Positions 1-64,000 of a stretch of DNA of 64,000 bases are shown here, piece by piece. The stretch's first letter is position 1; each line of letters starts with the position of its first letter. This DNA is from Escherichia coli (GTDB taxonomy: Bacteria > Pseudomonadota > Gammaproteobacteria > Enterobacterales > Enterobacteriaceae): the NCBI RefSeq assembly GCF_001677475.2, contig NZ_CP015229.1; one strand, written 5' to 3'. The position numbers were made by a program, and so were the translations under genes. The notes under the pieces were generated by a model that searched no databases, was not told the DNA's origin, and saw only the letters and a list, made by a program, of their open reading frames with translations.

Positions 1-1
1 C

Positions 2-280
2 CGTGAATATCGCCGCCGCCAGAAACAACTGAAATCTGCAACTAAAGCAGCCATTAAGGCGCAGAAACAAATGGACGCGCTGGAAGTTGCTGAACTGCTG
101 CCGCAGATAGCCGAACCAGCAGCACCAGAATCAAGGGTTGTTGGTATTTTCCGGCCTGTGGGTAACACAGTACGGGTTAAATATCGCACCCCCGATGATA
201 AATACGAACCCGCTCGTGATGAATATCTGAATCAGTCACTGGATATTCTGGAACAGAAAAGACGTAAAAAAGCCATTTAA
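2..280 (+). CDS. A: Mu-type DDE transposase A, C-terminal fragment (5' end upstream of window)
   Basis: Frame open from window edge to stop at 278-280; C-terminus ...LDILEQKRRKKAI matches the MuA tail as recalled; B-like gene follows. Confidence 0.75.
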   Translation, partial: REYRRRQKQLKSATKAAIKAQKQMDALEVAELLPQIAEPAAPESRVVGIFRPVGNTVRVKYRTPDDKYEPARDEYLNQSLDILEQKRRKKAI

Positions 281-318
281 TTAACGTTTAAACAAAATTT
301 AATTACGAGGTTATTTAG

Positions 319-1278
319 ATGAATATTTCCGATATTCGCGCAGGACTGCGCACGCTTGTAGACAATGGAGAAACCACGCTGACACGCATCGCCAGTGAAT
401 CAGGCGTGGCCCTGAGCACAGTCAGTGGTTTTGTGAATGATAAATATAACGGCAACATGGAATCAGTCGGGCGCACACTGGAACGCTGGCTGGAAAACTA
501 TCACCGCGCAGAAGAACTGCCGGAACCCCCGCGTTTTGTGGAAACTGCAACAGCCCGTCAAATCTGGACAAGTATGCGTTTTGCTAATCTGACCGGAACC
601 ATTGCTGTTATCTGTGGCAATCCAGGAGTGGGTAAAAGCGAAGCAGCCCGTGAATTTTGTCGCACTAATAATAATGTCTGGATGATCACCATCGCGCCAT
701 CCCGTGCCAGTACGCTGGAATGTCTGACTGAACTTGCCGAAGAGTTGGGAATGAATAATGCACCCTGTCGCAAAGGGCCGCTTTCCCGTAATCTGCGTCG
801 CCGCCTGAAAGGGACGCAGGGACTGGTCATTGTTGACGAAGCTGATCACCTTGACACCGAAGCGCTGGAAGAGCTCCGTCTGTTACAGGAGTCCGCCTGT
901 ATTGGTCTGGTTCTGATGGGGAATCACCGTGTTTATTCAAATATGACCGCTAATGGCGACAGAACAATTGAGTTTGCCCGTCTGTTTTCCCGTATTGCAA
1001 AGCGCACAGCAATTAATAAAACCAAAGAAGACGATGTAAACGCAATTGCGGATGCCTGGCAGATTACCGGGAAAAATGAACGGGAATTATTACAGCAGAT
1101 TGCACAAACGCCTGGTGCGCTCCGCATTATGAATCAAACGCTGCGCCTTGCTGTTATGAATGCCTTCGGTAAAGGCGAACGTGTTAATGAGGATTATCTG
1201 CGTGAGGCTTACAAAGAGTTAGACCAGGACGTTGATGTTTCGATGCTGCTGGGTGTGCAAGGGGATGCTGAATCATGA
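319..1278 (+). CDS. B: Mu B-like ATP-dependent target-DNA activator
   Basis: 319 aa; GAGG RBS; Walker A GNPGVGKS and VIVDEADHL; N-terminus [14 protein letters not shown] as in Mu B. Confidence 0.9.
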
Positions 1279-1502
1279 TGTCACGGAATATCAAAATGGC
1301 AACGGAAGTAAAGAGCTGGTTACAGGAGCGCGGCAGCCACGTCAACGAATCCTGGCTGGGCGTGGCCCGCCCGGTGCTTGAAATCACCTGCCCACCACCG
1401 GAGCTTGTCAGGAATGCTGTCAGGATTATGGAGCGTAAATCAGGGGTTGCCCGTTCAGTCTGGACGGCCCGCCTTAATGGTTGCCAGATTATCTGGCGTT
1501 AA
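1275..1502 (+). CDS. small early protein at the kil position (Kil-like by position only)
   Basis: 75 aa ORF; ATG overlaps B stop (ATGATG); position equals Mu kil. Confidence 0.45.
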
Positions 1503-1534
1503 TAACGGCTTATTTATTTGTGAGGAATAACAAA

Positions 1535-1804
1535 ATGGCAAAAGTAATCTTTGAATTTAACCGCATGGAAGATGTTGAGTTTCAGAAAAAAGGAGGTTTC
1601 TTTGTAGGAATGAGTGTGCAACTGGAAGAACAGTCTCCTAAGGAGCAAACCGGACCGCATGACGTGATGGCAGTCATTATCAAGAGCATGGCTCCTGAAA
1701 TTATTGAAAAAGCAACCCAGGAGTTGTTGAAGTCAGCCAGAGAACTTGGGCTGGAAGCCGAAGGCGAGTTATTCCGGTATAACCCGGATGCAGCTAAATA
1801 TTAA
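1535..1804 (+). CDS. hypothetical early-region protein
   Basis: 89 aa from ATG 1535 with GAGGAA RBS. Confidence 0.55.
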   Translation: MAKVIFEFNRMEDVEFQKKGGFFVGMSVQLEEQSPKEQTGPHDVMAVIIKSMAPEIIEKATQELLKSARELGLEAEGELFRYNPDAAKY

Positions 1805-1824
1805 TTCGCAAAGGAACGCTGACA

Positions 1825-2244
1825 ATGAAAGCCAAAATCAGAAACGAAATTCAGGCATTAATTCGGATTAAAGAGCGTAATAGCAATGGTGGAGACTTGC
1901 GCGAATTTATTTGCGCGCGCGAAGTTGAGGGATATGGCGAAAAGACTTACCTGATTGCATTCGACCATTACAGCATTTGTGCGCGTTATTGCGGGGAGGC
2001 GGTATTCCGCGCCATTACGTTTGGCAATGCCTTCAATGTGGATTTATGGGAATACGTCATGGACCGCGAATACATCAGCGCGTCAGACCCGGACGCACGG
2101 GAGCAGTGGAAGAACATCTGGCGCGATTACCGGCAAATGGCGAAAGGCTGGACGCAGGGGACGTATTCTTCCCTTGCCCTGAAAGCGGTTCAGCTATCTG
2201 TGCGGCATATGCTGTCGGCACGATTCGAACTCCCGGTGCACTGA
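1825..2244 (+). CDS. hypothetical early-region protein
   Basis: 139 aa; AAAGGAA RBS before ATG 1825. Confidence 0.55.
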   Translation: MKAKIRNEIQALIRIKERNSNGGDLREFICAREVEGYGEKTYLIAFDHYSICARYCGEAVFRAITFGNAFNVDLWEYVMDREYISASDPDAREQWKNIWRDYRQMAKGWTQGTYSSLALKAVQLSVRHMLSARFELPVH

Positions 2245-2260
2245 TAAGGAGGGCATCATC

Positions 2261-2548
2261 ATGATAATCCCTCGCAAAAGATGGTCACGTGAAGACCGGG
2301 AATTTATCGAAGCCAGTGTCGGGAAAATGACAGTTGAAGAAATGGCGAAAAAACTGAACGTTGCCACAAGCGCCCTGCGGGCACATGCCAGAAGGTACGG
2401 AATATCGTTGTGTGTATACAAAATCAGTGAGCACGACAAATATTTGTGTCGAGAACTTTATAAAGAAGGGGTGGCTATTCATGTCATTGCCCAAAAGATG
2501 GAATTAAGCAATCGGGCTGTATCCAGCGTTGTATACAGTGAATATTAA
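2261..2548 (+). CDS. hypothetical early-region protein, possible HTH
   Basis: 95 aa; strong AAGGAGG RBS. Confidence 0.55.
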   Translation: MIIPRKRWSREDREFIEASVGKMTVEEMAKKLNVATSALRAHARRYGISLCVYKISEHDKYLCRELYKEGVAIHVIAQKMELSNRAVSSVVYSEY

Positions 2549-2568
2549 TTAACAGGAGCTTTATTTAT

Positions 2569-3093
2569 ATGGCTAAACCAGCAAAACGAATCAGGAATGC
2601 CGCAGCAGCTTATGTTCCTCAATCCCGCGATGCCGTGGTGTGTGATATTCGCTGGATTGGTGACCTGCAACGCGAAGCGGTACGACTTGAAACGGAAATG
2701 AATGACGCTATTGCTGAAATTACGGAGAAATACGCCTCACGGATTGCGCCGCTTAAAACCCGTATTGAAACCCTTTCAAAAGGCGTTCAGGGGTGGTGTG
2801 AAGCGAACCGTGACGAACTGACGAACGGCGGCAAGGTGAAGACGGCCAACCTGGTAACCGGTGATGTGTCATGGCGTCAGCGCCCACCATCAGTAAGTAT
2901 TCGCGGTGTGGATGCGGTGATGGAAACGCTGGAGCGTCTTGGCCTGCAACGCTTTATTCGCACGAAACAGGAAATCAACAAGGAAGCGATTTTACTGGAA
3001 CCGAAAGCGGTCGCAGGTGTTGCCGGAATTACAGTTAAATCAGGCATTGAAGATTTTTCTATTATTCCGTTTGAACAGGAAGCCGGTATTTAA
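2569..3093 (+). CDS. gam: Gam host-nuclease inhibitor (DNA end-binding)
   Basis: 174 aa, same length as Mu Gam; MAKPAKRI...IIPFEQEAGI closely matches Mu Gam as recalled. Confidence 0.9.
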   Translation: MAKPAKRIRNAAAAYVPQSRDAVVCDIRWIGDLQREAVRLETEMNDAIAEITEKYASRIAPLKTRIETLSKGVQGWCEANRDELTNGGKVKTANLVTGDVSWRQRPPSVSIRGVDAVMETLERLGLQRFIRTKQEINKEAILLEPKAVAGVAGITVKSGIEDFSIIPFEQEAGI

Positions 3094-3191
3094 TACCACC
3101 ACGAATATTTAATTAGTTCACTTTCTTTTAATTATGGCGCGATGCGTCAGGGGATTGCTCGCGCCTGAATCTGATATACGGGATATAAAAA

Positions 3192-3734
3192 ATGATTAAT
3201 ACAAAAGTTCTGAGCGGCGTCAGCACATTATTACAGGTTTACGGGCGTCTGACCTGCGGCGTACTGGCTGAAAAAATGAAGATGCCACCTTCCTCAATGG
3301 TGTATTTCCTGCGTGATGCGGTTGATGCCGGAGTTCTCACTGAATGCAACGGATTTTATGACGTTCCGCGCCCTCGTCCGACGCCGCCAGTAATACGAAA
3401 CGCAACAACGGAGCACCCCGATGTTGATGATGCTCAATGGTGCGCGTTCCGCCGCTCTTTGCCCTGGCTGGAAGGCAATGCCATTCCGGCACTGGCAAAA
3501 GAATTTGCGACAGGCGTACTGACCTGCGAGTCGGTTTACATCGTTGCTGAAGTGGATGACGATATGTGCAAACAGGGAATGCCCCGTTTTGTGATGGCTT
3601 ATATCGATATCCGGCTGGGTCGTTTTATTTGTGGCTCCAGTGGCTGGAATATCACCGACCACATCCTGCGCTATCTCATTCTTGATTATTCACCAGCTCC
3701 GGCAGCAACACAGGAAGTCAGTGAACATGATTAA
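3192..3734 (+). CDS. hypothetical early-region protein
   Basis: 180 aa ORF; weak RBS. Confidence 0.5.
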   Translation: MINTKVLSGVSTLLQVYGRLTCGVLAEKMKMPPSSMVYFLRDAVDAGVLTECNGFYDVPRPRPTPPVIRNATTEHPDVDDAQWCAFRRSLPWLEGNAIPALAKEFATGVLTCESVYIVAEVDDDMCKQGMPRFVMAYIDIRLGRFICGSSGWNITDHILRYLILDYSPAPAATQEVSEHD

Positions 3735-3909
3735 GTCAACTGGCTTTGTCCTGCTGGTTGGCACCTGCGGGAATGATGCCTGCGATGCCATTCCGGTAAC
3801 GGAAAAAATCTGGCCCACAGAGCAGGCATGTATGCAGGTGATGGAGCGCATACAAAAACGTTATCCCAGTGAAATCTTTTATTGCGAAGAGGTATTACGA
3901 AATGAATAA
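3727..3909 (+). CDS. small hypothetical protein
   Basis: 60 aa from ATG 3727, overlapping previous stop. Confidence 0.4.
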   Translation: MIKSTGFVLLVGTCGNDACDAIPVTEKIWPTEQACMQVMERIQKRYPSEIFYCEEVLRNE

Positions 3910-4228
3910 ACCAGAGAATAAAGAAATGAAATTCACACCAGTTGATATTGATGGCGTCATGGCTAATTTAAAGATGCTGGAACGTATGCACGATATCGTT
4001 AAATATGGTATTGAGCATGACCTCACCGCCAGAGAAGTCCGGAGCATTATTAACCGTGAAATGAACCAGGTGGAAGCTGCCGTGGCGCTACAAAATGAAG
4101 CAGCCCGCGAGGAATACATTCGTCGCAGGCTGGGACTATCAAATAAAGATATTCTTACGGATGCTCAGATGGCTGAGGCTTTTGATATTCATCAGAATCT
4201 TGGTCTAACAAACGGATGGTATCAGTGA
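3902..4228 (+). CDS. hypothetical early-region protein
   Basis: 108 aa from ATG 3902 with GAGG RBS. Confidence 0.5.
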   Translation: MNKPENKEMKFTPVDIDGVMANLKMLERMHDIVKYGIEHDLTAREVRSIINREMNQVEAAVALQNEAAREEYIRRRLGLSNKDILTDAQMAEAFDIHQNLGLTNGWYQ

Positions 4229-4421
4229 TTAGCTGTGATATTTGCAGAATGGGATTATTCGTTGTTCTCAATGCCGGAGCCTCTGCCGCTCCGCTTGCTG
4301 CGGCTTCGAGGATCGTTTTGCCTTCCTCTGCGGTAATCAGCCCCTTTCTGACAAGGAGTATCAGCAACCTTGAAGCAATGACATACCCTGCAACATCATA
4401 AGGCTGTTCACTGTTTTTCAT
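4155..4421 (-). CDS. small convergent ORF in early region (88 aa), unknown function
   Basis: Minus-strand ATG at 4421 with AGGA RBS about 9 nt upstream; opposite to all surrounding Mu genes; overlaps 3' end of 3902..4228. Confidence 0.4.
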   Translation of the reverse strand: MKNSEQPYDVAGYVIASRLLILLVRKGLITAEEGKTILEAAASGAAEAPALRTTNNPILQISQLITDTIRLLDQDSDEYQKPQPSEHP

Positions 4422-4494
4422 AAAAAGTTTCCTCTGTTTAGTGAGTGGATTCTGGCGGTGTTGCCGCACCGCCCCCTTTTCTGGAGGTACGATA

Positions 4495-5046
4495 ATGAAT
4501 CGCACATCCCTGATTAAATTAATTCATGTCGCCCGTCGTGATCTACAACTCGACGATGACACTTACCGCGCCTTTCTGGTGCAGTGCACAGGCAAGACCA
4601 GCTGCCGCGAGCTGTCCGTTGCACAACTGGAACGTGTGCTCGATGCCATGAAAGAGTGCGGTTTTAAAAAGCAGAAAAAACATCCCCGCCGTCGCTTTAA
4701 GGGGCATGTCACACCGCGCGAGAAGATTTATAAAATCTGGCAGCAGATGTTTCAGGATGGCTTTATCGCTGATGGCAGCGATGTCGCGCTGGACAAATAC
4801 GTTGCACGCCTGACGGCCAGACGTAATGGCGGTCAGGGGGTTTCCACGCTGGCCTGGTGTCACGGGGAATCGTTGCAGGTTGTGCTCGAAACGCTCAAGC
4901 AGTGGCACATGCGCTGCATCCGGGAAGCCTTTGCCCGACATGGTGTGCCGTTACCTGCAAGCCCATCCGGGCGGGAACTACGCGGATATGATGCACTGAC
5001 CAGTGCATATGCCCGCGCACGAAACAGCGGGAGAATTGCTGTATGA
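4495..5046 (+). CDS. gemA: GemA-like protein (Mu gp16 family)
   Basis: 183 aa; GGAGG RBS; position before mor. Confidence 0.75.
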   Translation: MNRTSLIKLIHVARRDLQLDDDTYRAFLVQCTGKTSCRELSVAQLERVLDAMKECGFKKQKKHPRRRFKGHVTPREKIYKIWQQMFQDGFIADGSDVALDKYVARLTARRNGGQGVSTLAWCHGESLQVVLETLKQWHMRCIREAFARHGVPLPASPSGRELRGYDALTSAYARARNSGRIAV

Positions 5047-22788: not shown

Positions 22789-23858
22789 TGGGATCCGTGA
22801 TTCTTACCGTTGACGGTAAACTGTGGGAAGGCTGGACGGAAATGTCCGTCAGCCGTTCCCTGAAGGCGATTGCCGGTGAGTTTGATCTCAGTGTGACAAC
22901 ACGCTGGTCAGCGGCGGCACCGCGCGTGATTCGTGAGGGGCAACCCTGTACGGTCAGGCTGGGTGCGGATACCGTGCTGACGGGGTATATCGATGATTTT
23001 ATTCCCAGCTATGACGCGGACAATGTGGAAATTCGTGTCATGGGGCGCGACAAAACCGGCGACCTGGTGGACTGCTCTGTGGTGCATTCGTCCGGGAAAT
23101 GGAAAGGCGTGCGGCTTGAACAGGTGGCGGCGGATGTCTGCCGCCCGTTCGGAATAACCGTCATCACGGAAACCCCGACCGGGGAGGCGTTTGCGTCCGT
23201 TGTTCTGGAACAGGGTGAAACGGGTTTTGAACTGCTCGACCGGCTGGCAAAACAGCGCGGTGTTCTGCTGACGTCTGACGGAGCGGGTAACCTGATTATC
23301 ACCCGCGCTTCTTCCGTTCGCGCGGGCGTGTCACTGGTGCTGGGAAAAAATATCCTCGCCGCCCGTGGGCGCTTCAGCTGGCGGGAGCGTAACAGTCAGT
23401 ACATCATCAAGGGCACCACCAGTGCCGGTGGCAAACTGTGGGACAGCCAGCCTGCCCCGATGGTGGGCGGTCGCCAGTACATCACCGAAGACCCGGAAAT
23501 TAACCGTTACCGCCCGCGCATTCTGGTCAATGAAGACAGTCTGACCGTGGGCGGTGCCAGCATTCGCGGGGAATGGTACAAAGCCCGGATGCTGGGAGAG
23601 GCCCGCACGACGGAAATCACGGTGGCAGGCTGGCGCGAACAGGGCGACAGCGGTCCGCTGTGGCAGACCAACCGCCTTGTCGATATCGACGACAGCATTC
23701 AGAACCTGAAAACCACCTGGCTGATATCCGGGGTGACCTGGACGGATGGTGCACAGGGGCGGATGACGGTTCTGGCGCTGGTTCCGCCTGAATCACTGGA
23801 TATGCCGGAAATGAAAGCGAAGACGAAGAAAACAAAGGCGGTGGCCACATGGGATTAA
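22788..23858 (+). CDS. baseplate hub / tail protein (Mu P family)
   Basis: 356 aa; overlapping start. Confidence 0.75.
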   Translation: MGSVILTVDGKLWEGWTEMSVSRSLKAIAGEFDLSVTTRWSAAAPRVIREGQPCTVRLGADTVLTGYIDDFIPSYDADNVEIRVMGRDKTGDLVDCSVVHSSGKWKGVRLEQVAADVCRPFGITVITETPTGEAFASVVLEQGETGFELLDRLAKQRGVLLTSDGAGNLIITRASSVRAGVSLVLGKNILAARGRFSWRERNSQYIIKGTTSAGGKLWDSQPAPMVGGRQYITEDPEINRYRPRILVNEDSLTVGGASIRGEWYKARMLGEARTTEITVAGWREQGDSGPLWQTNRLVDIDDSIQNLKTTWLISGVTWTDGAQGRMTVLALVPPESLDMPEMKAKTKKTKAVATWD

Positions 23859-24385
23859 ACGCCATTGCCCGCCGTCTGCGACTGATGGTTGACCGTGCCA
23901 TTGTCCGCATGGTGTCTGACAGTCTGGAGCGGCAGAACCTGCAAATCCAGACGCTGGCAGATGCCACCGACGACGACGTGGAACGCTTCCAGAACTACGG
24001 TTTTACATCCGTGCCGCCGGAAGGTTCTGAAGCCATAGTGCTGGCCGTTAGCGGGCGGCGTGACGGGCTGGTTGCCATCGCGGTGGAGGACAAGCGATGT
24101 CGCCCGAAAGGGCTGTCCCCCGGCGACGTCCGGCTGTATCACCAGGACGGCAAATCACATATCACGTTAAGGAAAGGCGGAATTATTGAAATCACAGGGG
24201 AACAATTAAACGTTTCAGGGAAAACGGTAAATCTCACCGCCGACGAATTACTGGCTATAAATGCAGGAAATATGAAATTCGTCGGTCCCTGTGAGTTTAC
24301 TGAAGATGTCAGAATCAACGGCAAATCTTTCAGCGAACACATTCATAAGGACGGCGACAATGAGAATACATCACCGCCCGTATGA
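23849..24385 (+). CDS. baseplate spike protein (gpV-like)
   Basis: 178 aa. Confidence 0.65.
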   Translation: MGLNAIARRLRLMVDRAIVRMVSDSLERQNLQIQTLADATDDDVERFQNYGFTSVPPEGSEAIVLAVSGRRDGLVAIAVEDKRCRPKGLSPGDVRLYHQDGKSHITLRKGGIIEITGEQLNVSGKTVNLTADELLAINAGNMKFVGPCEFTEDVRINGKSFSEHIHKDGDNENTSPPV

Positions 24386-30961: not shown

Positions 30962-31147
30962 ATGGATGCTGTTCGTTGTAAAAACTGCAATAAATTGCTG
31001 TTTAAAGGAAGTTTTAAGCATATAGAAATCAAATGCCCTCGTTGTAAACGTTACATTGTCATGTCGAGTGCCCGGGAGCATCCCACGGAGCTGTATTGTG
31101 GGAAAAGAGAAGAAATCACGCATCCTTACAAAACCCTGCGTTATTGA
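30962..31147 (+). CDS. com: Com zinc-finger translational activator of mom
   Basis: 61 aa; [33 protein letters not shown]...THPYKTLRY closely resembles Mu Com. Confidence 0.85.
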
Positions 31148-31793
31148 GTATGAAGGCCGTATTGTCGGCTATGGTTCAAGGGAACTGCGCGTTGAAACCA
31201 TATCCTGCTGGCTGGCCCGCACAATCATTCAGACAAAGCACTATTCCCGCCGTTTTGTGAATAACTCCTGGTTGCATCTGGGGGTATTCAGCGGACGTGA
31301 TCTGGTTGGCGTTCTCCAGTGGGGATACGCCCTTAATCCCAACTCAGGGCGTCGGGTCGTGCTGGAAACGGATAACCGGGGCTATATGGAACTGAACCGC
31401 ATGTGGTTACACGACGACATGCCCCGCAACTCTGAATCACGGGCTATCAGCTACGCACTGAAAACCATCAGGTTACTGTATCCATCAGTGGAGTGGGTTC
31501 AGTCCTTTGCAGACGAACGCTGCGGACGTGCAGGTGTTGTGTATCAGGCATCTAATTTTGATTTTATTGGTAGCCATGAAAGCACGTTCTACGAGCTGGA
31601 CGGCGAGTGGTATCACGAGATAACGATGAACGCGATTAAGCGTGGAGGACAACGAGGCGAGTATTTGCGGGCTAATAAGGAGCGGGCGGTGGTACACAAA
31701 TTTAATCAGTATCGCTACATCAGATTCCTGAACAAGCGCGCAAAAAAGCGACTAAATACTAAGCTATTCAGGATTCAGCCATACCCGAAGTGA
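31098..31793 (+). CDS. mom: Mom DNA adenine modification protein
   Basis: No in-frame ATG near 5' end; GTG 31098 (GGAG 9 nt upstream) gives 231 aa; overlaps com by 50 nt. Confidence 0.8.
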
Positions 31794-31814
31794 TCCCACG
31801 TAATGAATAAAAAA

Positions 31815-31837
31815 GCAGCGGCCAATGCCGCTGTTTT

Positions 31838-31838: not shown

Positions 31839-32244
<406 letters not shown>

Positions 32245-41759: not shown

Positions 41760-43349
41760 TTACTTAATAAGCAGCGGTACGCCCTGGATACGACGGGCTA
41801 CGCCAGTCGGGCAGCAGGCCCAGACTACTTCCCATTTATCGAATTCCGCCTGCGTAACTTTCAGCACATACGGTTCTGTACCGTCAGCATCAGGATCACG
41901 AGGAGCCACCAGAGCGCCGGAGGCGACAAAGCGATCTAAAAGTTTGGTCATCCCTTTAGTCAGTCCAGACTCAGTAATGCCGTCCGGGTTATGCTTCATC
42001 TGTCGGGCTAACTGGACAAAGAAACGGCTGATTGCGTTCATCAGGGATGGTACGTGCTGGAAATGCAGATAGTTGTCCTGCGTGCAACAAGTTAAAGCAT
42101 CATCGATGATCATCTGGCCCGAAGTACCTACAGATACTTTATTGAGTCGGCCCTTGACCATAGCTTCTTCGTCCGGGGTGTCTTCAGGATACAGCGGCTG
42201 AAGTGATGCACGAGCAATGACGGCACGTTCTTCACCAGCCGGTGAGTAATGCCAACCGCCGACATCGGAGTTTTTCTTAACGCCACGAGCTTTCGCCGCA
42301 TACGCCGCGCCAGACAGACCGAAGACCACACGGGATTGGGTCCATTTGTCTTTGCAGGAGAACGGGAAGTGATAGACAGAACAGCTTACATAATCGGTAC
42401 CAAGTAAACCGGTATCCTCAACAGCTGGTAGTGCTTCTGCGTACGTTAATGTCGGTTTGACATCAAAGAAGCCATCAATCAGGCGATCTGCACAGATTTT
42501 ACCTAATGCGGTGATAGCCGCATTGTCATAGCAGCCCAGGCCAAGAACAGCGGTGTACATGTACGGCGCATTGTTCAGCACTTTCACCGCACGCAGGTAC
42601 GCAGCGGTTGAGATTTTCGACTGATCACCGTTGGTACCACCAGTGAACGCCAACGATTTTTTATTTGTTACTTTCGCCGTCGAAATCAGCTCTTCATTAA
42701 CAACCGCGCGCAGATATTTAGAACGGGCTTCCAGAGCCGTAGGCAGATAACACAAGCGGCCCATGTCATCTTTCGCTTCTTCCGCCAAAGACACAGTGTG
42801 TGTCTCCAGGGTCGTTACCACGCCGAGCGAAGTCGTCTGGGTCAGTTTCAGGAGGAAGCGTTCATTACCTGCGCTGTCCGCTGTTGCCGTTTCGATGGTT
42901 AACTCACGGGTAGGTGAAATACACGGATCACCATCATCAACGTAGATAGCAAAGGCTTCGCCGCTATCAAGTTCAATTTCAGAACCGTATGGCAACGCAC
43001 TGTAAGCCGGTTCGCCTGATTCATCGAACATAATAACCGGGAACTTCGCATCATCCGGAACAGCACGGACAACATAACCAGACGTTTGCTGAATAGCTTC
43101 GTATACATGGCGAATTGGTTCGAACTGTGAGCCGGAAGACGGCTTCAGCGGTTCGCCGAGAACATCTTCGTAATTGGACTCAGTAACCGCAAGAACAGTA
43201 AACGGCTTGCCACGCGCAAATACGCCAATACCAGCCCACAAGCTGCTATTTAATGCAACACCGGTAGATAACGTCGCATCTGCATTGATCGGGCTAACCG
43301 CGACGCCGGATGCATTACCTAATGACTGTTGAATTGAATATTGAGACAT
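41760..43349 (-). CDS. contractile tail sheath protein (P1 gene 22 position)
   Basis: 529 aa; AGGGA RBS; size and position as P1 sheath. Confidence 0.7.
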   Translation of the reverse strand: MSQYSIQQSLGNASGVAVSPINADATLSTGVALNSSLWAGIGVFARGKPFTVLAVTESNYEDVLGEPLKPSSGSQFEPIRHVYEAIQQTSGYVVRAVPDDAKFPVIMFDESGEPAYSALPYGSEIELDSGEAFAIYVDDGDPCISPTRELTIETATADSAGNERFLLKLTQTTSLGVVTTLETHTVSLAEEAKDDMGRLCYLPTALEARSKYLRAVVNEELISTAKVTNKKSLAFTGGTNGDQSKISTAAYLRAVKVLNNAPYMYTAVLGLGCYDNAAITALGKICADRLIDGFFDVKPTLTYAEALPAVEDTGLLGTDYVSCSVYHFPFSCKDKWTQSRVVFGLSGAAYAAKARGVKKNSDVGGWHYSPAGEERAVIARASLQPLYPEDTPDEEAMVKGRLNKVSVGTSGQMIIDDALTCCTQDNYLHFQHVPSLMNAISRFFVQLARQMKHNPDGITESGLTKGMTKLLDRFVASGALVAPRDPDADGTEPYVLKVTQAEFDKWEVVWACCPTGVARRIQGVPLLIK

Positions 43350-43409
43350 AACTTTCCCTGTTATGCGCCCCGCACGGGGGCGCTATGTTAAACGGAGAAC
43401 TTCCCCTGA

Positions 43410-45137
43410 TTACTCAGAGTCACCGGCATCAATCGTGTCGCCGCTTATGAAGTTAAGCCCGCCTTTTTTGGCCATTGTCAGCGTTACACGAGTGAAGTAA
43501 TCAGCGCCGTTGCGTGGGTGCATATCGTTGATAGCCGAACCCCACAGCGTGGTACGGTTGACCAGCGCCGGAGTGGTCGGATGCTGGAACGGGATGGCCG
43601 GGACAGCATCACCAGTCACGAAGCCTGCTTTACCCGGATTTTCATCACGGACGTAGCACAGCACATCCATCGAGCTGAACTGAATGTTCTCTGTCGTTAA
43701 GTTCTTACAAATACCAGCAGGTACTTCGTACACTTTCACGTTACCGAACAGGGTACCGATGTAGTGAACATACGGAGTCTGGATATAGTCTTCGGCTGGC
43801 TGGAAGAAATCCTTCGGCAACTGTTTGAAGAAAGATGCTGCATCAGCACCAGCAAACATCCCCATCGCACCAGAAGATTTAACGCGCTCAATAATGTCGC
43901 GATATACAGTCTGGAATTTGCCACGAATGATGGTTGCCCATACATCAAAGGACTGGTTAACCGGCAGAGCGATGTCAAAGGTGTCGGTCGCAAGAGTGCG
44001 CCAGATCATGATGCGAAGACGCAGCATATCCTGTTCATGAGACAGGTATTCCTTCAGGGTGCGGAACTGTAGGGAACCCAGGTCCAGACCAAATTCACGC
44101 TGTGCTTCATACGCCGCCTGTACCGTGTGCTCAGCCGCGATAACGAACTGGCTTGGGAACAGGGTGTATTTCTTCATTTCGTGGTTGATCAGCGGGATCA
44201 GCTCAGGAGCGGCTTCAATATTGATTTCCGTCTCAATTGCGATCTCAGTGCCTTTATCCGGCGCTTTGGAGAACGACAGGGCAATCTGACCAATGTTGTA
44301 GTTCAGAGAGCAAGTAACAGTGATTTGCTCACCAGCAGCATTAGTAAACGAGTGAAGTAGGCTGCCGGAACCGTTATCAACAACAGACTTAATACGGTTA
44401 ACGTAGATGTTAGTGCGACCTTTTCGGATTGGTACATTCTGGCCTTCGAAGTCTTCCATCTTGAAGGTTGCGGTTTTGCTGGTGCCATCGGAGCTTGCCA
44501 CCAGCACATAGCGGCGGCGTAACTGGCTGTACACACCGACGGATTGCATGTCCAGAACATCACCAGCAGCATAAGAACCAAAAGAGGAACCTGCCACGTT
44601 AAAGACTTCATAGATGTCGGACTGGTCACGCGTAACCGGAATGAAGGTACACGCATCAGCGGTAGCTGCCCCCAACTGAACAGGCAGGATCATCGCGAGG
44701 AATAAAGGCAGACGCATAACACCGTCAGAAACGCTCATCATCTCTGCTGCGACGGATTCCAGCATCGCTTTATTAGTGGCATCCATGCTATTGCGGGTGG
44801 ACTCAATCAGGCAGTTTTCCAGCGTCTGGTGGCAGGAGGCCAGAATTTCCGGACGCGGCATAGATTTATGTGCTGCGGCGTAGTCAGCCAGTGCACTTGC
44901 CCACGCTGTAGCGATTTGAGCGGTGGCATTATCAGAGATACCCGCAAAAATCGGGTCTTTGCGTGCAGCTTCAAGGATAGATGCGGCACGCGCGGCATCA
45001 TCTTTGATGAATTGGTTATCAGTACCGAACTGTGCTGCACTTGCCCAGCCAAGAACGGCTTTAGAGCGTTTTGCGATATCTGCAATACGATTCTGGTATT
45101 CGCGTAAGTTACTCAAGTTACTCTTCCTTAAACACAA
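43410..45137 (-). CDS. major structural protein, capsid candidate (P1 gene 23 position)
   Basis: 575 aa ORF next to par locus; start is TTG, true start uncertain. Confidence 0.55.
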   Translation of the reverse strand: MCLRKSNLSNLREYQNRIADIAKRSKAVLGWASAAQFGTDNQFIKDDAARAASILEAARKDPIFAGISDNATAQIATAWASALADYAAAHKSMPRPEILASCHQTLENCLIESTRNSMDATNKAMLESVAAEMMSVSDGVMRLPLFLAMILPVQLGAATADACTFIPVTRDQSDIYEVFNVAGSSFGSYAAGDVLDMQSVGVYSQLRRRYVLVASSDGTSKTATFKMEDFEGQNVPIRKGRTNIYVNRIKSVVDNGSGSLLHSFTNAAGEQITVTCSLNYNIGQIALSFSKAPDKGTEIAIETEINIEAAPELIPLINHEMKKYTLFPSQFVIAAEHTVQAAYEAQREFGLDLGSLQFRTLKEYLSHEQDMLRLRIMIWRTLATDTFDIALPVNQSFDVWATIIRGKFQTVYRDIIERVKSSGAMGMFAGADAASFFKQLPKDFFQPAEDYIQTPYVHYIGTLFGNVKVYEVPAGICKNLTTENIQFSSMDVLCYVRDENPGKAGFVTGDAVPAIPFQHPTTPALVNRTTLWGSAINDMHPRNGADYFTRVTLTMAKKGGLNFISGDTIDAGDSE

Positions 45138-55863: not shown

Positions 55864-55880
55864 ATTGCTCTAATAAATTT
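55864..55880. promoter_or_regulatory. C1 operator 17-mer, perfect consensus, upstream of tRNA-tci-ban operon
   Basis: ATTGCTCTAATAAATTT. Confidence 0.55.
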
Positions 55881-56053
55881 ATTAGTGTAATATCGCCTCA
55901 ATGAATCGTGATTTATAGAGCGATTTAGCTGTTAGCCGCGACAGGCGCGGCGGTAAGCATGGCTGGGCCTAGTCCTCCCAGACAAACCACCGAGTTGCCA
56001 GGTTGACCATGCGCCTAAGTGGCAACGCCGAAGTGCGTTACGAGCTTCCAGTT

Positions 56054-56545: not shown

Positions 56546-56621
56546 GATGGTGTAGCTCAGCGGTTAGAGCGGTTGACTGTTAATCAACGGGTCGATGGTT
56601 CAAATCCATCCACCATCGCCA
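56546..56621 (+). tRNA. tRNA-Asn (anticodon GTT)
   Basis: Cloverleaf folded by hand; anticodon loop CTGTTAA; T-loop GGTTCAAATCC; encoded CCA. Confidence 0.85.
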
Positions 56622-56623
56622 AT

Positions 56624-56699
56624 GCCGGTTTAGCTCAGTTGGTAGAGCGCCTGCCTTGTAAGCAGGATGTCAGCGGTTCGAGTCCGTTAATCGGCACCA
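56624..56699 (+). tRNA. tRNA-Thr (anticodon TGT)
   Basis: Cloverleaf folded by hand; anticodon loop CTTGTAA; T-loop GGTTCGAGTCC; encoded CCA. Confidence 0.85.
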
Positions 56700-57626
56700 G
56701 CACAACAGGTAAGGGTATTTTGCGACGTCGGAGATCGCCGAGCTTGGCAGAGGGTTCGAATCCCTACGAAGTACCCTTACCGTTGTGATGAATGCGCAGG
56801 CTGATGCGCGAAAGACATTGCAGCTATTGCGGAAAAGAGCTGTTCGGCGGGGCAATTAAACGCCCGTGAGAGTCTGAAATAACCGCAAGCCGGAGATCAG
56901 CACCGGTCATCACAACACAACAGGTAAGGGCATTCTCCCTTATGGGGCTTGGCTTAAATGCATCGAGTGCTCTTACCGTTGTGATGAAGTGCAGCTCTTT
57001 GAAGCAACCAGAAGATAAGCATCTGGCTTCACAACATAAACCGCAGGAACGACCAATAAACGGTAGTCCGTATGGAGAACACCCCGTTGAGGAAGAGGCC
57101 TGGCCGGAACCGTAACCGGCACTACAACGTTGAGAACACTGGCGTAACGGGGTCATATCCCAATCTACGAATAAATGTTGCGTTGCAGCGTGACAACCAG
57201 TGTTCTCAACATTGTGGTGAATGCACAGGCTGATGTGCCGCAACTACAGTAGTGCGCGCTTTGCGGGGCTTGCTACAACCCTGTGTCGGAGTTCAGCACC
57301 GACCATCACAGTTTGATTCTCTGGCATGAGCATAACGCTGAAATAAGTCCAGTCTGGTGCGGCCCGATCACCCGCCGTTAGCTCCACGAAACGGAGCACG
57401 TAACAGGTAAGAGCATTCTCCTGTAACGGGTTCATATCCCAATCTACAGGTCCACCAGGAATGCTCTTTCCGTTGCGGTGAATGCGGCTAAGCGCACGCG
57501 GGGAAATGGTTATATCTGTCCATTATTTCTCCTTATTTCCCCGTCCACGGTGGATAACCAGCCAAAGGACACCGGGAGGCACCCGGCACCGCAACCTTAT
57601 TTCCCAACCAGTAATGAGGTTAATAA

Positions 57627-58052
57627 ATGCTCGGTATTCTCAAAAAGAAATTCCGCAAAGCGGCTGGCGGAGTCAAGAAGATGGAAAACCGTGATGCGGT
57701 GGAAGCGACTGTCTGGGGCGCATATTCCATTGCATACTCTGACGGCACCTGCGATGCGAAAGAAATTGCAGTATTGGAAAAAACCATTGCAGCACTTCCT
57801 GCCTTTGCGCCGTTCTCCGGTGAAATTGCCCAGATGAGCGCCAATATTCGCGCTCAATATGAAGCCTCGCCGCGCCGAGCGAATGCCCAGGCTTTACGTG
57901 AACTGGCTGACGTGTCTGGAACTAATGATGCGGTAGATGTTCTGTGCCTATGCATTGATATTGCTGACCAGGATGGCATTGGGGCAGAAGAGCAGGAGCA
58001 ATTGAAGAAAATTGCCCAGGCTCTTCAATTGCCACTGGAACAGTATATCTGA
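57627..58052 (+). CDS. TerB-like domain protein (tciA position)
   Basis: 141 aa; GAGG RBS; helical, acidic. Confidence 0.65.
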   Translation: MLGILKKKFRKAAGGVKKMENRDAVEATVWGAYSIAYSDGTCDAKEIAVLEKTIAALPAFAPFSGEIAQMSANIRAQYEASPRRANAQALRELADVSGTNDAVDVLCLCIDIADQDGIGAEEQEQLKKIAQALQLPLEQYI

Positions 58053-58216
58053 TGGTTATAAAAGCACGTCTAATTCTGGCTTTGGTTTTTCTCGTGCTAT
58101 CTGTGCTGGTGGATTTCACCAGCACAATCCTGTCGGTTTTATCCGACGGGGCGTTGGTAGCAGTAGCTGTAACATTGGTATGGCCGATATTTAAACCAGC
58201 CTCGAAGGATCAGTGA
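58052..58216 (+). CDS. small hydrophobic membrane peptide
   Basis: 54 aa; ATG overlaps previous stop; two hydrophobic helices. Confidence 0.45.
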   Translation: MVIKARLILALVFLVLSVLVDFTSTILSVLSDGALVAVAVTLVWPIFKPASKDQ

Positions 58217-58326: not shown

Positions 58327-58402
58327 GGCCCTTTAGCTCAGTGGTTAGAGCTGGCGACTCATAATCGCACGGTCACCGGTTCAAGTCCGGTAGGGGCCAC
58401 CA
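58327..58402 (+). tRNA. tRNA with CAT anticodon (Met or lysidine-dependent Ile)
   Basis: Cloverleaf folded by hand; anticodon loop CTCATAA; T-loop GGTTCAAGTCC; encoded CCA. Confidence 0.8.
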
Positions 58403-58687
58403 TATTTGGTTGTAACACGGCGTCTGGCACATGCGTCGTTAGCGGTCTGGTAACGTTAAAGGGGTTACCTTTTCCCCTAGCTCAGGCAACAAACCAGGTA
58501 GCCGAAATGTGCAAGTCACCGTTGGAGGGATAGCGGATACAGGGACTCACCATCCTGGCGATTCGGTGTGACAGCCGGGAAGAGTCCGGCGCATTAATCC
58601 TGATTTTCTGGTGATGACTCATATCGTTAGGAGTGATTTGAGTATGCCGATTATATCTGACATTCAGCACGCCTGGGTGGAGTGCTA

Positions 58688-60052
58688 ATGTCTGCATCCC
58701 CTCTTGAATCCATGCCAAATTCCCTTAGTGCAGAACAAGCTGTACTTGGTGGCTTAATGCTTGATAACTGCCGCTGGGATGAAGTTGCAGATCGTATAGT
58801 TGCTGATGATTTTTATACCAGTGCTCATCGTGAAATTTTCAGTGAGATGGAGAGGTTATTAAGTCATGGCAAACCGATTGATTTGATAACACTTGCTGAA
58901 GCACTTGAACAGAACGGTAAATTAGAACGCGCCGGTGGTTTTGCGTACCTTGCGGAGATGTCAAAGAACACGCCCAGCGCGGCAAATATTTGTGCTTATG
59001 CGGATATCGTTCGTGAACGCGCGGTTGTTCGTGAAATGATTTCCGTCGCAAATGAAATAGCTGAAGCTGGATATGCGCAGGATGGCAGGGGCAGCAATGA
59101 ATTGCTGGATATGGCCGAGCGCCGCGTTTTTGAAATAGCTGAAAAACGACAAAAGAGCGGTAGTGGTCCAAAAGATATCGCCAGCATTCTCGATGCAACG
59201 GTATCTCGCATAGAAGAGTTGTTTCAGCGACCGCATGATGGTGTAACGGGGCTTGATACCGGATTTACCGATCTCAATAAGAAGACGGCAGGACTTCAGG
59301 CGTCCGATCTCATTATTGTCGCCGCCCGCCCATCGATGGGGAAGACTACGTTTGCGATGAATCTCGTCGAAAATGCCGCAGTCCGTAACGATAAGCCCGT
59401 ATTGGTTTTTAGCCTTGAGATGCCGAGCCACCAGCTGATGATGCGCTCACTGGCTTCTCTTGCACGCGTTGATCAGACTCGTATTCGAACAGGGCAACTT
59501 AACGACGAGGATTGGGCGCGGGTTTCTGGCGCAATGGGGATTCTGTTGGACAAGCAGAATATTTTTATTGATGACTCAAGCGCCCTGACACCTACAGAGC
59601 TTCGTTCCCGCGCTCGTCGTGTTTATAAAGAAAATGGTGGTTTGAGCATGATTATGATCGACTACCTGCAACTTATGCGCGTCCCCGAGCTGCAAGATAA
59701 CCGAACGCTGGAAATTGCCGAGATTTCTCGCTCACTGAAGGCTTTGGCGAAGGAATTACAAGTACCGGTGGTGGCATTGTCACAACTTAATCGATCGCTT
59801 GAACAGCGTGCGGACAAACGACCGGTAAATTCAGATTTACGTGAATCAGGAGCAATTGAGCAGGACGCAGACCTGATCATGTTTCTGTATCGTGACGAAG
59901 TTTATCACCCGGATAGCGAAATGAAGGGCATTGCCGAGGTAATTATCGGTAAGCAACGAAATGGCCCAATTGGCACGGTGAGATTGGCTTTTAACGGCCA
60001 ATACTCACGGTTTGATAACTATGCCGGTGCTGACTGGCAAGAGGATTATTAA
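58688..60052 (+). CDS. ban: DnaB-like replicative helicase Ban
   Basis: 455 aa from ATG 58688; Walker A GKT, DnaB-family C-terminal motifs. Confidence 0.85.
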   Translation: MSASPLESMPNSLSAEQAVLGGLMLDNCRWDEVADRIVADDFYTSAHREIFSEMERLLSHGKPIDLITLAEALEQNGKLERAGGFAYLAEMSKNTPSAANICAYADIVRERAVVREMISVANEIAEAGYAQDGRGSNELLDMAERRVFEIAEKRQKSGSGPKDIASILDATVSRIEELFQRPHDGVTGLDTGFTDLNKKTAGLQASDLIIVAARPSMGKTTFAMNLVENAAVRNDKPVLVFSLEMPSHQLMMRSLASLARVDQTRIRTGQLNDEDWARVSGAMGILLDKQNIFIDDSSALTPTELRSRARRVYKENGGLSMIMIDYLQLMRVPELQDNRTLEIAEISRSLKALAKELQVPVVALSQLNRSLEQRADKRPVNSDLRESGAIEQDADLIMFLYRDEVYHPDSEMKGIAEVIIGKQRNGPIGTVRLAFNGQYSRFDNYAGADWQEDY

Positions 60053-60075
60053 TGCAATGGAATGAGGAAAAGCCG

Positions 60076-61050
60076 ATGAACATCCTGATCATTGGGCGAA
60101 AATTTGAAGCTATCAGTGATGTGAAAACATATACGGAAATGTGGGCTTATAACCTGGCCTGCGCCTTTAGTGAGGCAGGGGTAACATTGCAATACCATCG
60201 TCCATATTCCCCCAGCGTCGAAAGCCCGGAGGATTATGTTGAAGCTGTGTTGACCGCTGCGACCTCGTGTTCTGCGAAAGCCATTTTAGCGCCAGGATTG
60301 CGGTATTTTACTACGGTGCCCAGGGAAATAGGCGTGCAACTGCGTCGTCGATTCACTGGATGGGTAGCCCAGGTATACGACGGTTCTATGCTGGATTCGG
60401 CACCAGTCGATATTACTTTTACTGTCCGCGATGATACCTGGCGGTACCTGGATAATCCCGGCAGGTTAGAGCGTCATAATCGCTTTAACAAACATGTTGG
60501 ATGGGCAGCGAATCAGGATCTGTTCCATCTGGAAACCAAAACAGACGATGTTCTGCGTATTTTTGTAGACCACGCTGCATTTGATGTTAGTGGTTTTGAT
60601 CACTCCTTAAGTATCCTTATGAACCTTCAGCGTCTGACCGTTCCGTATGAGGCCAGAACGTTGACTGATGACGGATTGGTTACCATTGATCCGGGGAATA
60701 TTTCGGTAATTCCATACAGACGGACGCCGGTGCCAGCAACCGAATTTGCAGCTGAATTGCGTAAGAGTGACGTTTTTATCGTTACGCATCCCGAAAGCCT
60801 TGGATTAACTGTTCTTGAGGCGGCAATGTGCGGGGCGTTGGTATTAACGCCTCCCGATTGCCTTCCGCCAGATCGCCTGGCTTTGGTGAACCATATGGTT
60901 ATCAAGTCGCGGATTGATTGGGATGAGGTTATTGCTCGCGTTGATCGCGTGAAAAATGCTGAAAAGGTCCAGTGTCACACCTGGTCGGCAATTGCGGAAA
61001 AGATGCTTGAGACGTTTATCACGCAGAAACCGTCGTGCGGTAACGGATAA
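60076..61050 (+). CDS. glycosyltransferase-like protein (GT-B C-terminal domain), downstream of ban
   Basis: 324 aa from ATG 60076 with GAGGAA RBS (alternative ATG 60052); motif HPESLGLTVLEAAMCGALVLTPP. Confidence 0.55.
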   Translation: MNILIIGRKFEAISDVKTYTEMWAYNLACAFSEAGVTLQYHRPYSPSVESPEDYVEAVLTAATSCSAKAILAPGLRYFTTVPREIGVQLRRRFTGWVAQVYDGSMLDSAPVDITFTVRDDTWRYLDNPGRLERHNRFNKHVGWAANQDLFHLETKTDDVLRIFVDHAAFDVSGFDHSLSILMNLQRLTVPYEARTLTDDGLVTIDPGNISVIPYRRTPVPATEFAAELRKSDVFIVTHPESLGLTVLEAAMCGALVLTPPDCLPPDRLALVNHMVIKSRIDWDEVIARVDRVKNAEKVQCHTWSAIAEKMLETFITQKPSCGNG

Positions 61051-61071
61051 AAATTGAACCCATTATAAAAG

Positions 61072-61095
61072 AAAAGCCCGATCGCCGGGCTTTTC
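61072..61095. terminator. bidirectional rho-independent terminator
   Basis: AAAAGCCCG-ATCGC-CGGGCTTTT between convergent genes. Confidence 0.5.

Positions 61096-64000
<2,905 letters not shown>

Follow-up and report, generated by a model that had tools for sequence, protein, structure and literature searches.

Dbn of phage P1 as a candidate member of a recurring set of four predicted phage glycosyltransferases

Phage-borne glycosyltransferases are known that act on the virion, on the host's surface, or on phage DNA. Mycobacteriophages such as Che8 and Rita glycosylate their virions with several phage-encoded glycosyltransferases, which act in the lytic cycle and are dispensable for forming plaques (Freeman et al. 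2023). Seroconversion systems of the gtrABC type change a surface glycan that serves as a phage receptor. These are expressed from the prophage, they act in the periplasm together with membrane partners, and they are encoded next to int and att. The alpha- and beta-glucosyltransferases of T4, as well as the arabinosyl-5-hydroxycytosine transferases of other phages, are GT-B enzymes that are expressed in lytic growth. In the known cases of phage DNA glycosylation, the sugar is transferred onto an existing hydroxyl (on 5-hmC, 5-hmU, or 5-hoC), which arises from a phage homolog of thymidylate synthase (PMC13326640). Finally, the MptE-like enzyme WaaZ adds Kdo III to the inner core of the LPS of E. 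coli, and this switch is accompanied by truncation of the outer core (PMC6358824). We compared these systems to dbn and its neighbors in a P1-type element, using the 64-kb stretch of DNA that we analyzed (the window; Table 1).

A sequence-only reading of this locus described a glycosyltransferase-like protein at the position where P1 has dbn. The slot is right, and the ORF is dbn itself. It matches PHROG 2518 from end to end (E = 1e-238), and its nucleotide sequence is 97.3% identical to P1 dbn (AF234172, 72659-73657) and 98.7% identical to the copies in RCS47 and SJ46. The protein is 96.9% identical to P1 Dbn (ten amino acid differences). P1 Dbn (AAQ14048, "downstream of ban"), P7 Glt, and RCS47 p0075 are all the same gene, with 96-99% protein identity, in the same slot between ban and gene 5 and in the same operon with a C1 operator, tRNAs, and tci genes. 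The P1-type backbone in the window differs from P1 in that it has a Mu-like prophage upstream.

We also confirmed the surroundings that had been described. The gene lies directly downstream of the Ban helicase (the ATG of dbn overlaps the stop codon of ban, as TAATG), and the C1-controlled tRNA-tci-ban operon is present, with its bivalent C1 operator, tRNAs, and tci genes. The operator combines a perfect ATTGCTCTAATAAATTT with an overlapping inverted copy that has 2 mismatches. Across the window, there are 6 matches to the C1 operator, versus 0.16 expected. The terminator between dbn and gene 5 has a predicted folding energy of -18.9 kcal/mol on the + strand (z = -5.3) and -18.7 kcal/mol on the - strand, with U-runs on both sides.

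Table 1. Features of the dbn locus. Positions are those of the window.
Feature	Position	Strand	Remarks
Bivalent C1 repressor operator (P1 Obanab/Op72)	55864..55891	.	Heads the tRNA-tci-ban-dbn operon; P1 annotation
tRNA-Asn and tRNA-Thr of the operon	56546..56699	+	
tciA (TerB-like) and tciB (DUF3927)	57627..58216	+	
tRNA with anticodon CAT (P1 trnI, ileX-like)	58327..58402	+	
ban, DnaB-type replicative helicase	58688..60052	+	Upstream gene in the same operon as dbn; Pfam DnaB_C, E = 1e-107
dbn ORF	60052..61050	+	332 codons plus stop, as annotated in P1; PHROG 2518; identity to P1, RCS47, and SJ46
Dbn conserved core, 324 aa	60076..61050	+	Starts at Met9 (MNILIIG), preceded by GAGGAAAAGCCG
N-terminal Rossmann-like domain, ~residues 9-145	60076..60486	+	Presumed acceptor-binding half; AF2 secondary structure
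C-terminal Rossmann-like domain, ~residues 146-324	60487..61023	+	Presumed nucleotide-sugar-binding half; AF2 model
Asp-His pair D173-H174	60568..60573	+	Invariant in 94 family members, family-specific (D165/H166 in 324-aa numbering)
HPESLGLTVLEAAMCGALVLTPP, residues 246-268, with EX7E	60787..60855	+	E248 at 60793-60795; E256 at 60817-60819
Bidirectional intrinsic terminator hairpin	61069..61097	.	Between the convergent genes dbn and 5
gene 5 (baseplate)	61096..61728	-	Convergent neighbor of dbn; marks the end of the operon

That dbn resembles glycosyltransferases was already known, from public annotation dating back to 2004: the gene is labelled "possible glycosyltransferase" in GenBank, "Glt" in P7, and "GT family 4" in RefSeq. 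The literature that we searched reports no function for Dbn and no link from Dbn to pmgO, pmgP, or pmgQ (discussed below). None of the PADLOC defense models matched, and the NCBIfam models gave only noise against Dbn, with no model matching.

The AF2 model of Dbn is confident, and it has the GT-B arrangement, in which a cleft separates two Rossmann-like alpha/beta domains. The segment that had been quoted as a GT-B signature is real and contains an EX7E motif. Of the two glutamates, E256 does not vary among 94 relatives of Dbn and E248 is kept in at least 90% of them, and the segment aligns with WaaG's own EX7E. The sequence likeness between Dbn and the CAZy GT4 enzymes (PimA, MshA, BshA, sucrose-phosphate synthase, WaaG, and WaaB) is limited to this segment. 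Dbn is also smaller (~320 versus 350-400 amino acids), and, judging from its sequence, it appears to lack the usual glycine-rich loop in the N-terminal domain (after strand 1, it reads IIGRKFEAISD, with no GG). In GT4 enzymes, a basic residue (Arg or Lys) after the first strand of the C-terminal domain binds the diphosphate. In Dbn, this strand ends in the Asp-His pair in place of G-R/K. Residues 229-315 score 25.0 bits against Glycos_transf_1 in Pfam, under the gathering cutoff of 26.4, and just 25 of the 94 relatives match this model at E ≤ 0.01. The proposed likeness to glycosyltransferases holds for the predicted fold and the conserved EX7E, but not for the Pfam score.

The nearest solved structures to Dbn are sucrose-phosphate synthase, GlgM, BshA, MshA, and tetrahydrobiopterin glucosyltransferase; WaaB and WaaG are also among its structural neighbors. 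Sequence-based searches for solved structures gave nothing meaningful from the single sequence, while the family profile found generic Rossmann domains (KtrA) and, marginally, PimA. By sequence, the N-terminal domain matches generic Rossmann domains (KtrA) only. We also considered E. coli WaaS, the rhamnose partner of WaaZ, as a relative of Dbn, and rejected it (hhalign probability 0.2%; blastp E = 1.4).

The low Pfam score, along with a stop at codon 31 in the P7 reference sequence and the lack of a laboratory phenotype when dbn is deleted or knocked down, might suggest that Dbn is an inactive relic: a decayed glycosyltransferase that is retained only by its linkage to ban. We think that there is very little chance of this. 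dN/dS for dbn is 0.12-0.20 (four P1-type alleles were compared), the reading frame is uninterrupted in every one of the 81 natural P1-type loci that we sampled, the catalytic-site motif is not only intact but also invariant across the family, and the fold is confidently predicted. The ORF is a genuine gene and not a chance reading frame. (We set aside phi456 and JK004 as natural P1-type phages without dbn. The former is an IS-deleted derivative and the latter is rearranged, so the slot is uninformative in both.)

The sequence-only reading had also suggested that Dbn modifies DNA as protection against restriction. On this account, Dbn would act like the T4 glucosyltransferases and attach a sugar to a base in the DNA of P1, and Dbn does resemble the DNA-modifying enzymes in its fold and in its lytic expression. 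Those systems, however, need a hydroxylated pyrimidine that is provided by a homolog of thymidylate synthase. When we compared E. coli ThyA to the ORFs of the window and to P1 regions 1-47.5, 67.7-78.7, and 78.6-94.8 kb with phmmer, we found no hits with E ≤ 10, although a very divergent homolog could escape such a search. DNA glycosyltransferases rank well below GT4 enzymes in the structural comparison, and relatives of Dbn are found in polysaccharide loci (see below). P1 DNA is routinely sequenced and cut with restriction enzymes, and we know of no report of a bulky modification. In addition, P1 with dbn deleted forms normal plaques and does not differ from its parent in its response to restriction by EcoA, EcoB, and EcoK; these tests covered type I systems only, with Dar present (PMC9024508, Table S3). 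Given the apparent lack of a thymidylate-synthase-like enzyme and the results for the deletions, DNA glycosylation is very probably not the role of Dbn. Overall, the sequence-only reading is partly supported, and it adds nothing new: the gene and its annotation were known, and the deletion that it proposed had already been made, with no plaque or restriction phenotype.

Besides dbn, P1 contains two MptE-like (WaaZ/sialyltransferase-like) genes, pmgO and pmgP, and a GT8-like gene with a DxD motif, pmgQ. In P1, these lie ~6 kb downstream of dbn and in a different operon, with tail genes in between. The corresponding genes are expected at ~67-70 kb, past the end of the window, and no ORF within its 64 kb is MptE-like. 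They are carried by RCS47 and SJ46, which are the closest relatives, and by L018, whose Dbn is identical to the one in the window. We had considered that Dbn might be the sole glycosyltransferase of P1-type phages, and we rejected this, as PmgO and PmgP match MptE-like proteins and this was confirmed independently. PmgO- and PmgP-type proteins are homologous to WaaZ (hhalign 96.7%) and to the MptE-like proteins that are encoded beside Dbn-like genes in bacteria. WaaZ and the other MptE-like proteins (DUF115, or Maf/sialyltransferase-like) are kin of PmgO and PmgP rather than of Dbn. At 180-220 amino acids, the phage versions are shorter, and they score under the Pfam cutoff. For twenty years, three of the four P1 genes have carried the label "putative morphogenetic". 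The set appears not to have been treated as a unit before, and its product appears not to have been searched for.

Dbn-like genes are nearly always accompanied by MptE-like genes. All 22 phage records with Dbn also carry PmgP- and PmgQ-like genes, and the counts for the four types are nested (73 records with PmgO, 32 with PmgQ, 27 with PmgP, and 22 with Dbn). The four types co-occur in P1-type phages and in L004/L010, L009, L011, and EP_H11/IME392, and CM1/RAS14, which are phages of Stenotrophomonas, have remote copies. Because dbn and pmgO-Q are ~6 kb apart and in different operons, their co-occurrence within P1-type phages could reflect a shared backbone. Independent support is limited to some four phage lineages besides P1 and to a few bacterial contigs. 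In EP_H11, IME392, L009, L011, and the bacterial clusters, Dbn-like genes adjoin MptE-like and PmgQ-type genes. (We rejected the neighbors of ~316-320 amino acids in the bacterial clusters as paralogs of Dbn.)

The separate operons in P1 would also fit with Dbn being a stand-alone enzyme that acts on a small soluble acceptor, such as a metabolite, a thiol precursor, or a sugar phosphate, independently of PmgO, PmgP, and PmgQ. The nearest solved structures are of enzymes with small acceptors. But in GT4, the acceptor is not identifiable from the ranking of folds, and the adjacency of the genes outside of P1 and the consistent presence of PmgP and PmgQ types alongside Dbn in phage records both speak against an independent enzyme. 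We consider this explanation to be unlikely. The co-occurrence suggests that Dbn is probably one of four glycosyltransferases.

We propose that Dbn is an active, soluble, cytoplasmic glycosyltransferase, and that it is one of four predicted glycosyltransferases with which P1 builds a glycan during lytic growth. We assign this a probability of roughly 0.5. We base it on the fold, the conservation of the motif, purifying selection, co-occurrence, and the homology of the partners, and from these we infer the activity, the donor, the order of action, and the acceptor. Given its GT-B fold and an EX7E motif that is typical of retaining GT4 enzymes, Dbn would transfer a sugar from a host-made nucleotide sugar to the growing glycan. 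PmgO and PmgP, as MptE-like proteins, belong to a group of transferases whose donors are CMP-activated ulosonic acids (Kdo, for example), and they may prime the glycan. Dbn would then add a late, distal residue, as the nested distribution suggests. We did not detect any genes for the synthesis of sugar nucleotides in the phage, so the donor sugars would come from host pools. All four genes are behind C1-repressed or late promoters, which implies that the glycan would be made in lytic growth.

As for the acceptor, we favor a virion protein, which is plausible at somewhat less than even odds, over LPS or another envelope glycolipid, which is possible but doubtful. More tentatively, we suggest that the set, which is conserved in P1 and in no fewer than four further lineages of phages, might build a short glycan that contains a Kdo-type ulosonic acid, on a virion protein or on the LPS core. 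A putative virion glycan of P1 would resemble the mycobacteriophage systems, although their enzyme families, hosts, and gene positions are unlike those of P1. The paper on the virion proteome of P1 does not mention glycosylation (0 occurrences of "glycos").

The alternative is that Dbn, together with PmgO, PmgP, and PmgQ, alters the LPS core or another lipid-linked glycan at the cytoplasmic face of the host's inner membrane. This could mask or remove the LPS-core glucose receptor, which might spare progeny from binding to debris or might exclude other phages. P1 uses the terminal glucose of the LPS outer core as the receptor for its S fiber (bioRxiv 10.1101/2022.07.24.501295), and the founding relative of the MptE-like partners is WaaZ, which adds its third Kdo alongside outer-core truncation, as described above. 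Furthermore, the MptE-like, GT8-like, and GT4-like types in P1 are the families that build the enterobacterial core (WaaZ; WaaO and WaaJ; and WaaG and WaaB, which are also structural neighbors of Dbn). Some divergent relatives of Dbn lie in a locus for an exported polysaccharide, with an ABC transporter, Poly_export, and other glycosyltransferase genes (Colwellia L006), and others adjoin genes for GT92, acetyltransferases, and methyltransferases. The relatives in exported-polysaccharide loci favor a lipid-linked glycan over a protein. On the other hand, in other phages the partner genes travel among head, late, and structural genes. The C1-repressed or late promoters are unlike those of the classical seroconversion genes, which are expressed from the prophage, and the annotation of P1 lists no membrane partner, flippase or other, that resembles GtrA or GtrB. 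Dbn is predicted to be soluble, with no membrane segment, and reports of adsorption or LPS phenotypes are absent. We therefore consider modification of the envelope to be a possible but less than likely explanation.

If the glycan is on the virion, P1 would be the first of the classical enterobacterial model phages with a system for virion glycosylation, and the glycan would affect immune recognition and the engineering of P1-based vectors. If it is on LPS, the phage would destroy its own receptor, which would be a new way for an LPS-binding phage to protect its progeny. In-frame deletions of dbn, pmgO, pmgP, and pmgQ are already available in P1CMclr100 (Gonzales et al. 2022), so the choice between virion and LPS is directly testable. 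P1 is the standard transducing phage, and it apparently has four glycosyltransferases, a combination that is found again in phages unrelated to it.

The annotated start of dbn is probably not the native one. Distant homologs of Dbn all begin at the second Met (position 60076), and 10 of the 81 P1-type loci differ from the others upstream of it, with unrelated sequence as far as an AAGGAG Shine-Dalgarno that directly precedes this Met. This suggests that the native protein has 324 amino acids. The site of the predicted P2dbn promoter of P1 is kept at 59415-59442. We do not take it as evidence that dbn is expressed in lysogens, as promoter-like sites around it are no more common than in shuffled sequences (1 found versus 3.8 expected). 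For ban, the mechanically called ORF starts at a GTG at 58682. A scan of genome contigs for peptide patterns yielded just a single P1-type element and, from Acidimicrobiia, a single remote match.

The ORF that the sequence-only reading described, just downstream of a DnaB-type helicase (Pfam DnaB_C, E = 1e-107) whose stop codon its ATG overlaps, is present, and residues 246–268 are the peptide HPESLGLTVLEAAMCGALVLTPP. It is 97.3% identical at the DNA level to dbn from phage P1 (AF234172, 72659-73657) and 98.7% identical to dbn from phages RCS47 and SJ46, and its product differs from P1's Dbn at ten amino acids. The ORF is dbn itself, beyond a mere match in position. P1's GenBank entry describes dbn as "function unknown, possible glycosyltransferase"; in P7, the gene is named glt ("putative glycosyltransferase"); RCS47 has "putative glycosyltransferase, Dbn"; and RefSeq has "glycosyltransferase family 4 protein". 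So, the core idea that Dbn is a glycosyltransferase has been in public annotations for two decades: it is right and already known. Taken alone, dbn is an ordinary gene. The part that deserves follow-up is its link to pmgO, pmgP, and pmgQ, which lie beyond the end of the window; we found no description of this link in the searchable literature.

The proposed setting, a C1-controlled tRNA-tci-ban operon, also holds: the C1 operator is followed by tRNA-Asn, tRNA-Thr, tciA (TerB-like), tciB, a tRNA with a CAT anticodon, ban, and dbn. The hairpin after dbn is flanked by U-runs on both sides, and the convergent baseplate gene 5 lies beyond it. Right after tRNA-Thr, in the plp region (~56800-56965), the window has ~170-195 more bases than P1; the alignment to P1 is interrupted there and then resumes. 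In some P1-type elements (L088, 5122-5949; RCS47, L003, 421-1248), tciA/tciB are replaced by a 275-amino-acid protein with a lipoprotein-type signal (MKKTLISAAIILGSLCLTGC...), annotated in RCS47 as a putative serine protease, so the ban operon is variable in its accessory genes.

Features of the dbn locus and of the P1 region with its predicted partners
Feature	Position	Strand	Details
Bivalent C1 operator	55864-55891		one half-site matches the consensus perfectly
dbn ORF	ATG at 60052, stop ending at 61050	+	332 codons
Terminator-like hairpin, dbn / gene 5 boundary	61069-61097	both	-18.9 kcal/mol, z -5.3
pmgO-pmgP-pmgQ region	P1 AF234172 79592-82150 (L103 993-3551)		outside the window

dbn is a real, maintained gene. 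Dbn matches PHROG 2518 (function unknown) from end to end (E = 1e-238), the frame is open in all 81 of the P1-type loci that we retrieved, and dN/dS is 0.12–0.20 among the alleles from the window, P1, P7, and RCS47. In the P7 reference (L002, AF503408, ~3091-3093), and there alone, codon 31 is a stop (W31*), which is why P7's Glt is annotated as shorter. The conserved start is probably the second Met (MNILIIG..., at 60076), where all of the distant homologs begin. Also, 10 of the 81 loci have a 100-amino-acid ORF inserted between ban and dbn, and their sequence 5' of the second Met is unrelated, as far as the AAGGAG Shine-Dalgarno. In these loci (L088-L097; the inserted ORF is at 7702-8004 in L088 and belongs to PHROG 12809, of unknown function), dbn begins at the second Met, with the AAGGAG ribosome-binding site in front.

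As judged by sequence, the case that Dbn is a glycosyltransferase is marginal: Glycos_transf_1 from Pfam scores 25.0 bits (the cut-off is 26.4) and covers residues 229–315 only, and searches of NCBIfam, PADLOC, and PDB sequences gave no useful match. When 1.84 billion representatives were searched with a profile, only 375 relatives were found, nearly all of them full-length (~300–340 amino acids). Across 94 of these (21–59% identity), D173, H174, E256, and G261 are invariant and E248 is conserved in at least 90%, which places the EX7E motif at the core of the family; the Asp-His pair (D173-H174) is a family-specific feature alongside it. The only part of E. coli WaaG to which the family profile aligns is WaaG's EX7E segment, and Glycos_transf_1 touches just 25 of the 94 relatives. 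The predicted fold and the conserved motif bear out the proposed likeness to glycosyltransferases: Dbn appears to be a GT-B enzyme of the GT4 type, from a small clade whose divergence puts it out of reach of current family models.

The divergent relatives of Dbn show no linkage to a helicase. In bacterial contigs, the Dbn-like gene comes after an MptE-like/WaaZ_KDO_III gene (e.g., L005, L012/13, L098, and Colwellia L006-8), with ABC-transporter, Poly_export, and GT1 genes also present at the Colwellia locus. Fusions occur too: one relative seems to join a weak MptE-like region to a Dbn-like domain, and in others the fusion partner is a methyltransferase or a hydrolase. In the capsule-type locus of the Colwellia metagenome contigs (L006, 7698-8702; L007 and L008 likewise), a frameshift or decay to a pseudogene has left the Dbn-like gene split over two frames, and this split is common to several independent assemblies. 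Other phages (lambdoid L009; L011; the Citrobacter phage-plasmid type, L004/L010; and EP_H11/IME392) have a compact cassette of a Dbn-like gene, two weakly MptE-like genes, and a ~210-236-amino-acid protein that PHROG 1962 labels "glycosyltransferase". The annotation of EP_H11 (OP688485) lacks the PmgP homolog at 42813-43415, and that of phiNP (OR565852) lacks the PmgO homolog at 23737-24282.

There is no MptE-like ORF within the window. We rejected the idea that Dbn is a solo enzyme in P1-type phages, as the MptE-like pmgO and pmgP were found outside the window, ~6 kb past dbn and ~3 kb past the window's end. A profile of the MptE-like neighbors matches both pmgO (E = 2e-32) and pmgP (E = 3e-35), whose best Pfam match is MptE-like (E = 6e-5 and 3e-4, respectively, under the cut-off). 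With hhalign, the phage MptE-like group matches the bacterial group, including E. coli WaaZ, over 180 columns (96.7% probability, E = 4e-10). WaaZ is a Kdo transferase that puts the third Kdo onto the inner core of LPS (PMC6358824). PmgO also matches a PHROG labeled "alpha-2,3-sialyltransferase" (E = 4e-74), a label that RefSeq copied; the existing label for pmgO and pmgP is "putative morphogenetic". Many unrelated phages carry PmgO-type "sialyltransferase-like" genes, among them the Pseudomonas D3/PMG1/PAJU2 group, Caulobacter phiCbK-like phages, Klebsiella jumbo phages, and a Tetraselmis virus; these genes often adjoin head genes or are labeled "structural protein".

P1's copy of the fourth cassette member is pmgQ (E = 4e-68). 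In the PmgQ family, DxD is invariant and FHGxPRP stands near the C-terminus. The family profile matches only GT8 enzymes in PDB (Skp1 alpha-galactosyltransferase, E = 4.5e-4; glycogenin, ~0.01; and LgtC), and it aligns with the DxD region of WaaJ. We have moderate confidence that PmgQ is GT8-like, which gives P1 four predicted glycosyltransferases. A Ser/Thr phosphatase gene (ppp) lies between pmgP and pmgQ in P1, which is not so in Cronobacter phage JK004.

Among 50,697 phage records, 22 have Dbn-like genes, and all 22 have both PmgP-like and PmgQ-like genes. The distribution is nested (PmgP-like, 27 records; PmgQ-like, 32; PmgO-like, 73), with Dbn the rarest member and never unaccompanied. 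Also, both MptE-like ORFs are found 5.9 kb past dbn in 65 of the 68 P1-type loci with sufficient flanking sequence, including L018, which carries a Dbn identical to that of the window. The other three (L066, L079, and L082) lack one or both, which may reflect either natural loss or faulty assembly. We propose that Dbn, PmgO, PmgP, and PmgQ form a four-enzyme glycosylation set; from the nesting, Dbn would add a late residue.

As to the acceptor, the evidence is split: some of it points to a virion protein, some to an envelope glycolipid. We lean slightly towards a virion protein (probability of roughly 0.4): each of the four genes is either C1-repressed or late; in phage D3, a PmgO-type gene (L106, 5855-6388) has the major head protein on one side and the head-tail adaptor on the other; phiNP has the cassette between its lysis and terminase genes, and in L009 it immediately precedes terminase; and mycobacteriophages have dispensable glycosyltransferases that decorate capsids. 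The paper on P1's virion proteome does not mention glycosylation, a silence which means only that it was not looked for. An envelope glycolipid is a slightly less likely acceptor: the bacterial relatives of Dbn lie in exported-polysaccharide loci, the three enzyme families of the set are those that build the enterobacterial LPS core, and the core's terminal glucose is P1's adsorption site. Of the two targets suggested in the sequence-only reading, the host surface is possible, while modification of DNA (anti-restriction) is not supported.

The window holds more than P1-type sequence: its first half, up to ~31919, is a Mu-like prophage, whose left end falls outside the window, and P1-type sequence runs from 31920 onward. 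The first 5,000 nucleotides (1-5000) are ~82% identical to the transposase B, gam, and gemA region of SfMu/D108, and 30972-31818 is ~89% identical to com/mom of Mu. At the junction (31919/31920), position 31920 corresponds to P1 46293, within pmgC, a gene known from experiment to be required for virion assembly. So, the P1-type element probably carries a Mu-like insertion that disables it as a phage; alternatively, the contig may be chimeric. Through com and a Mom-like DNA modification gene (30972-31818), the Mu-like element brings a known DNA-modifying function into the window, one that is unrelated to dbn.
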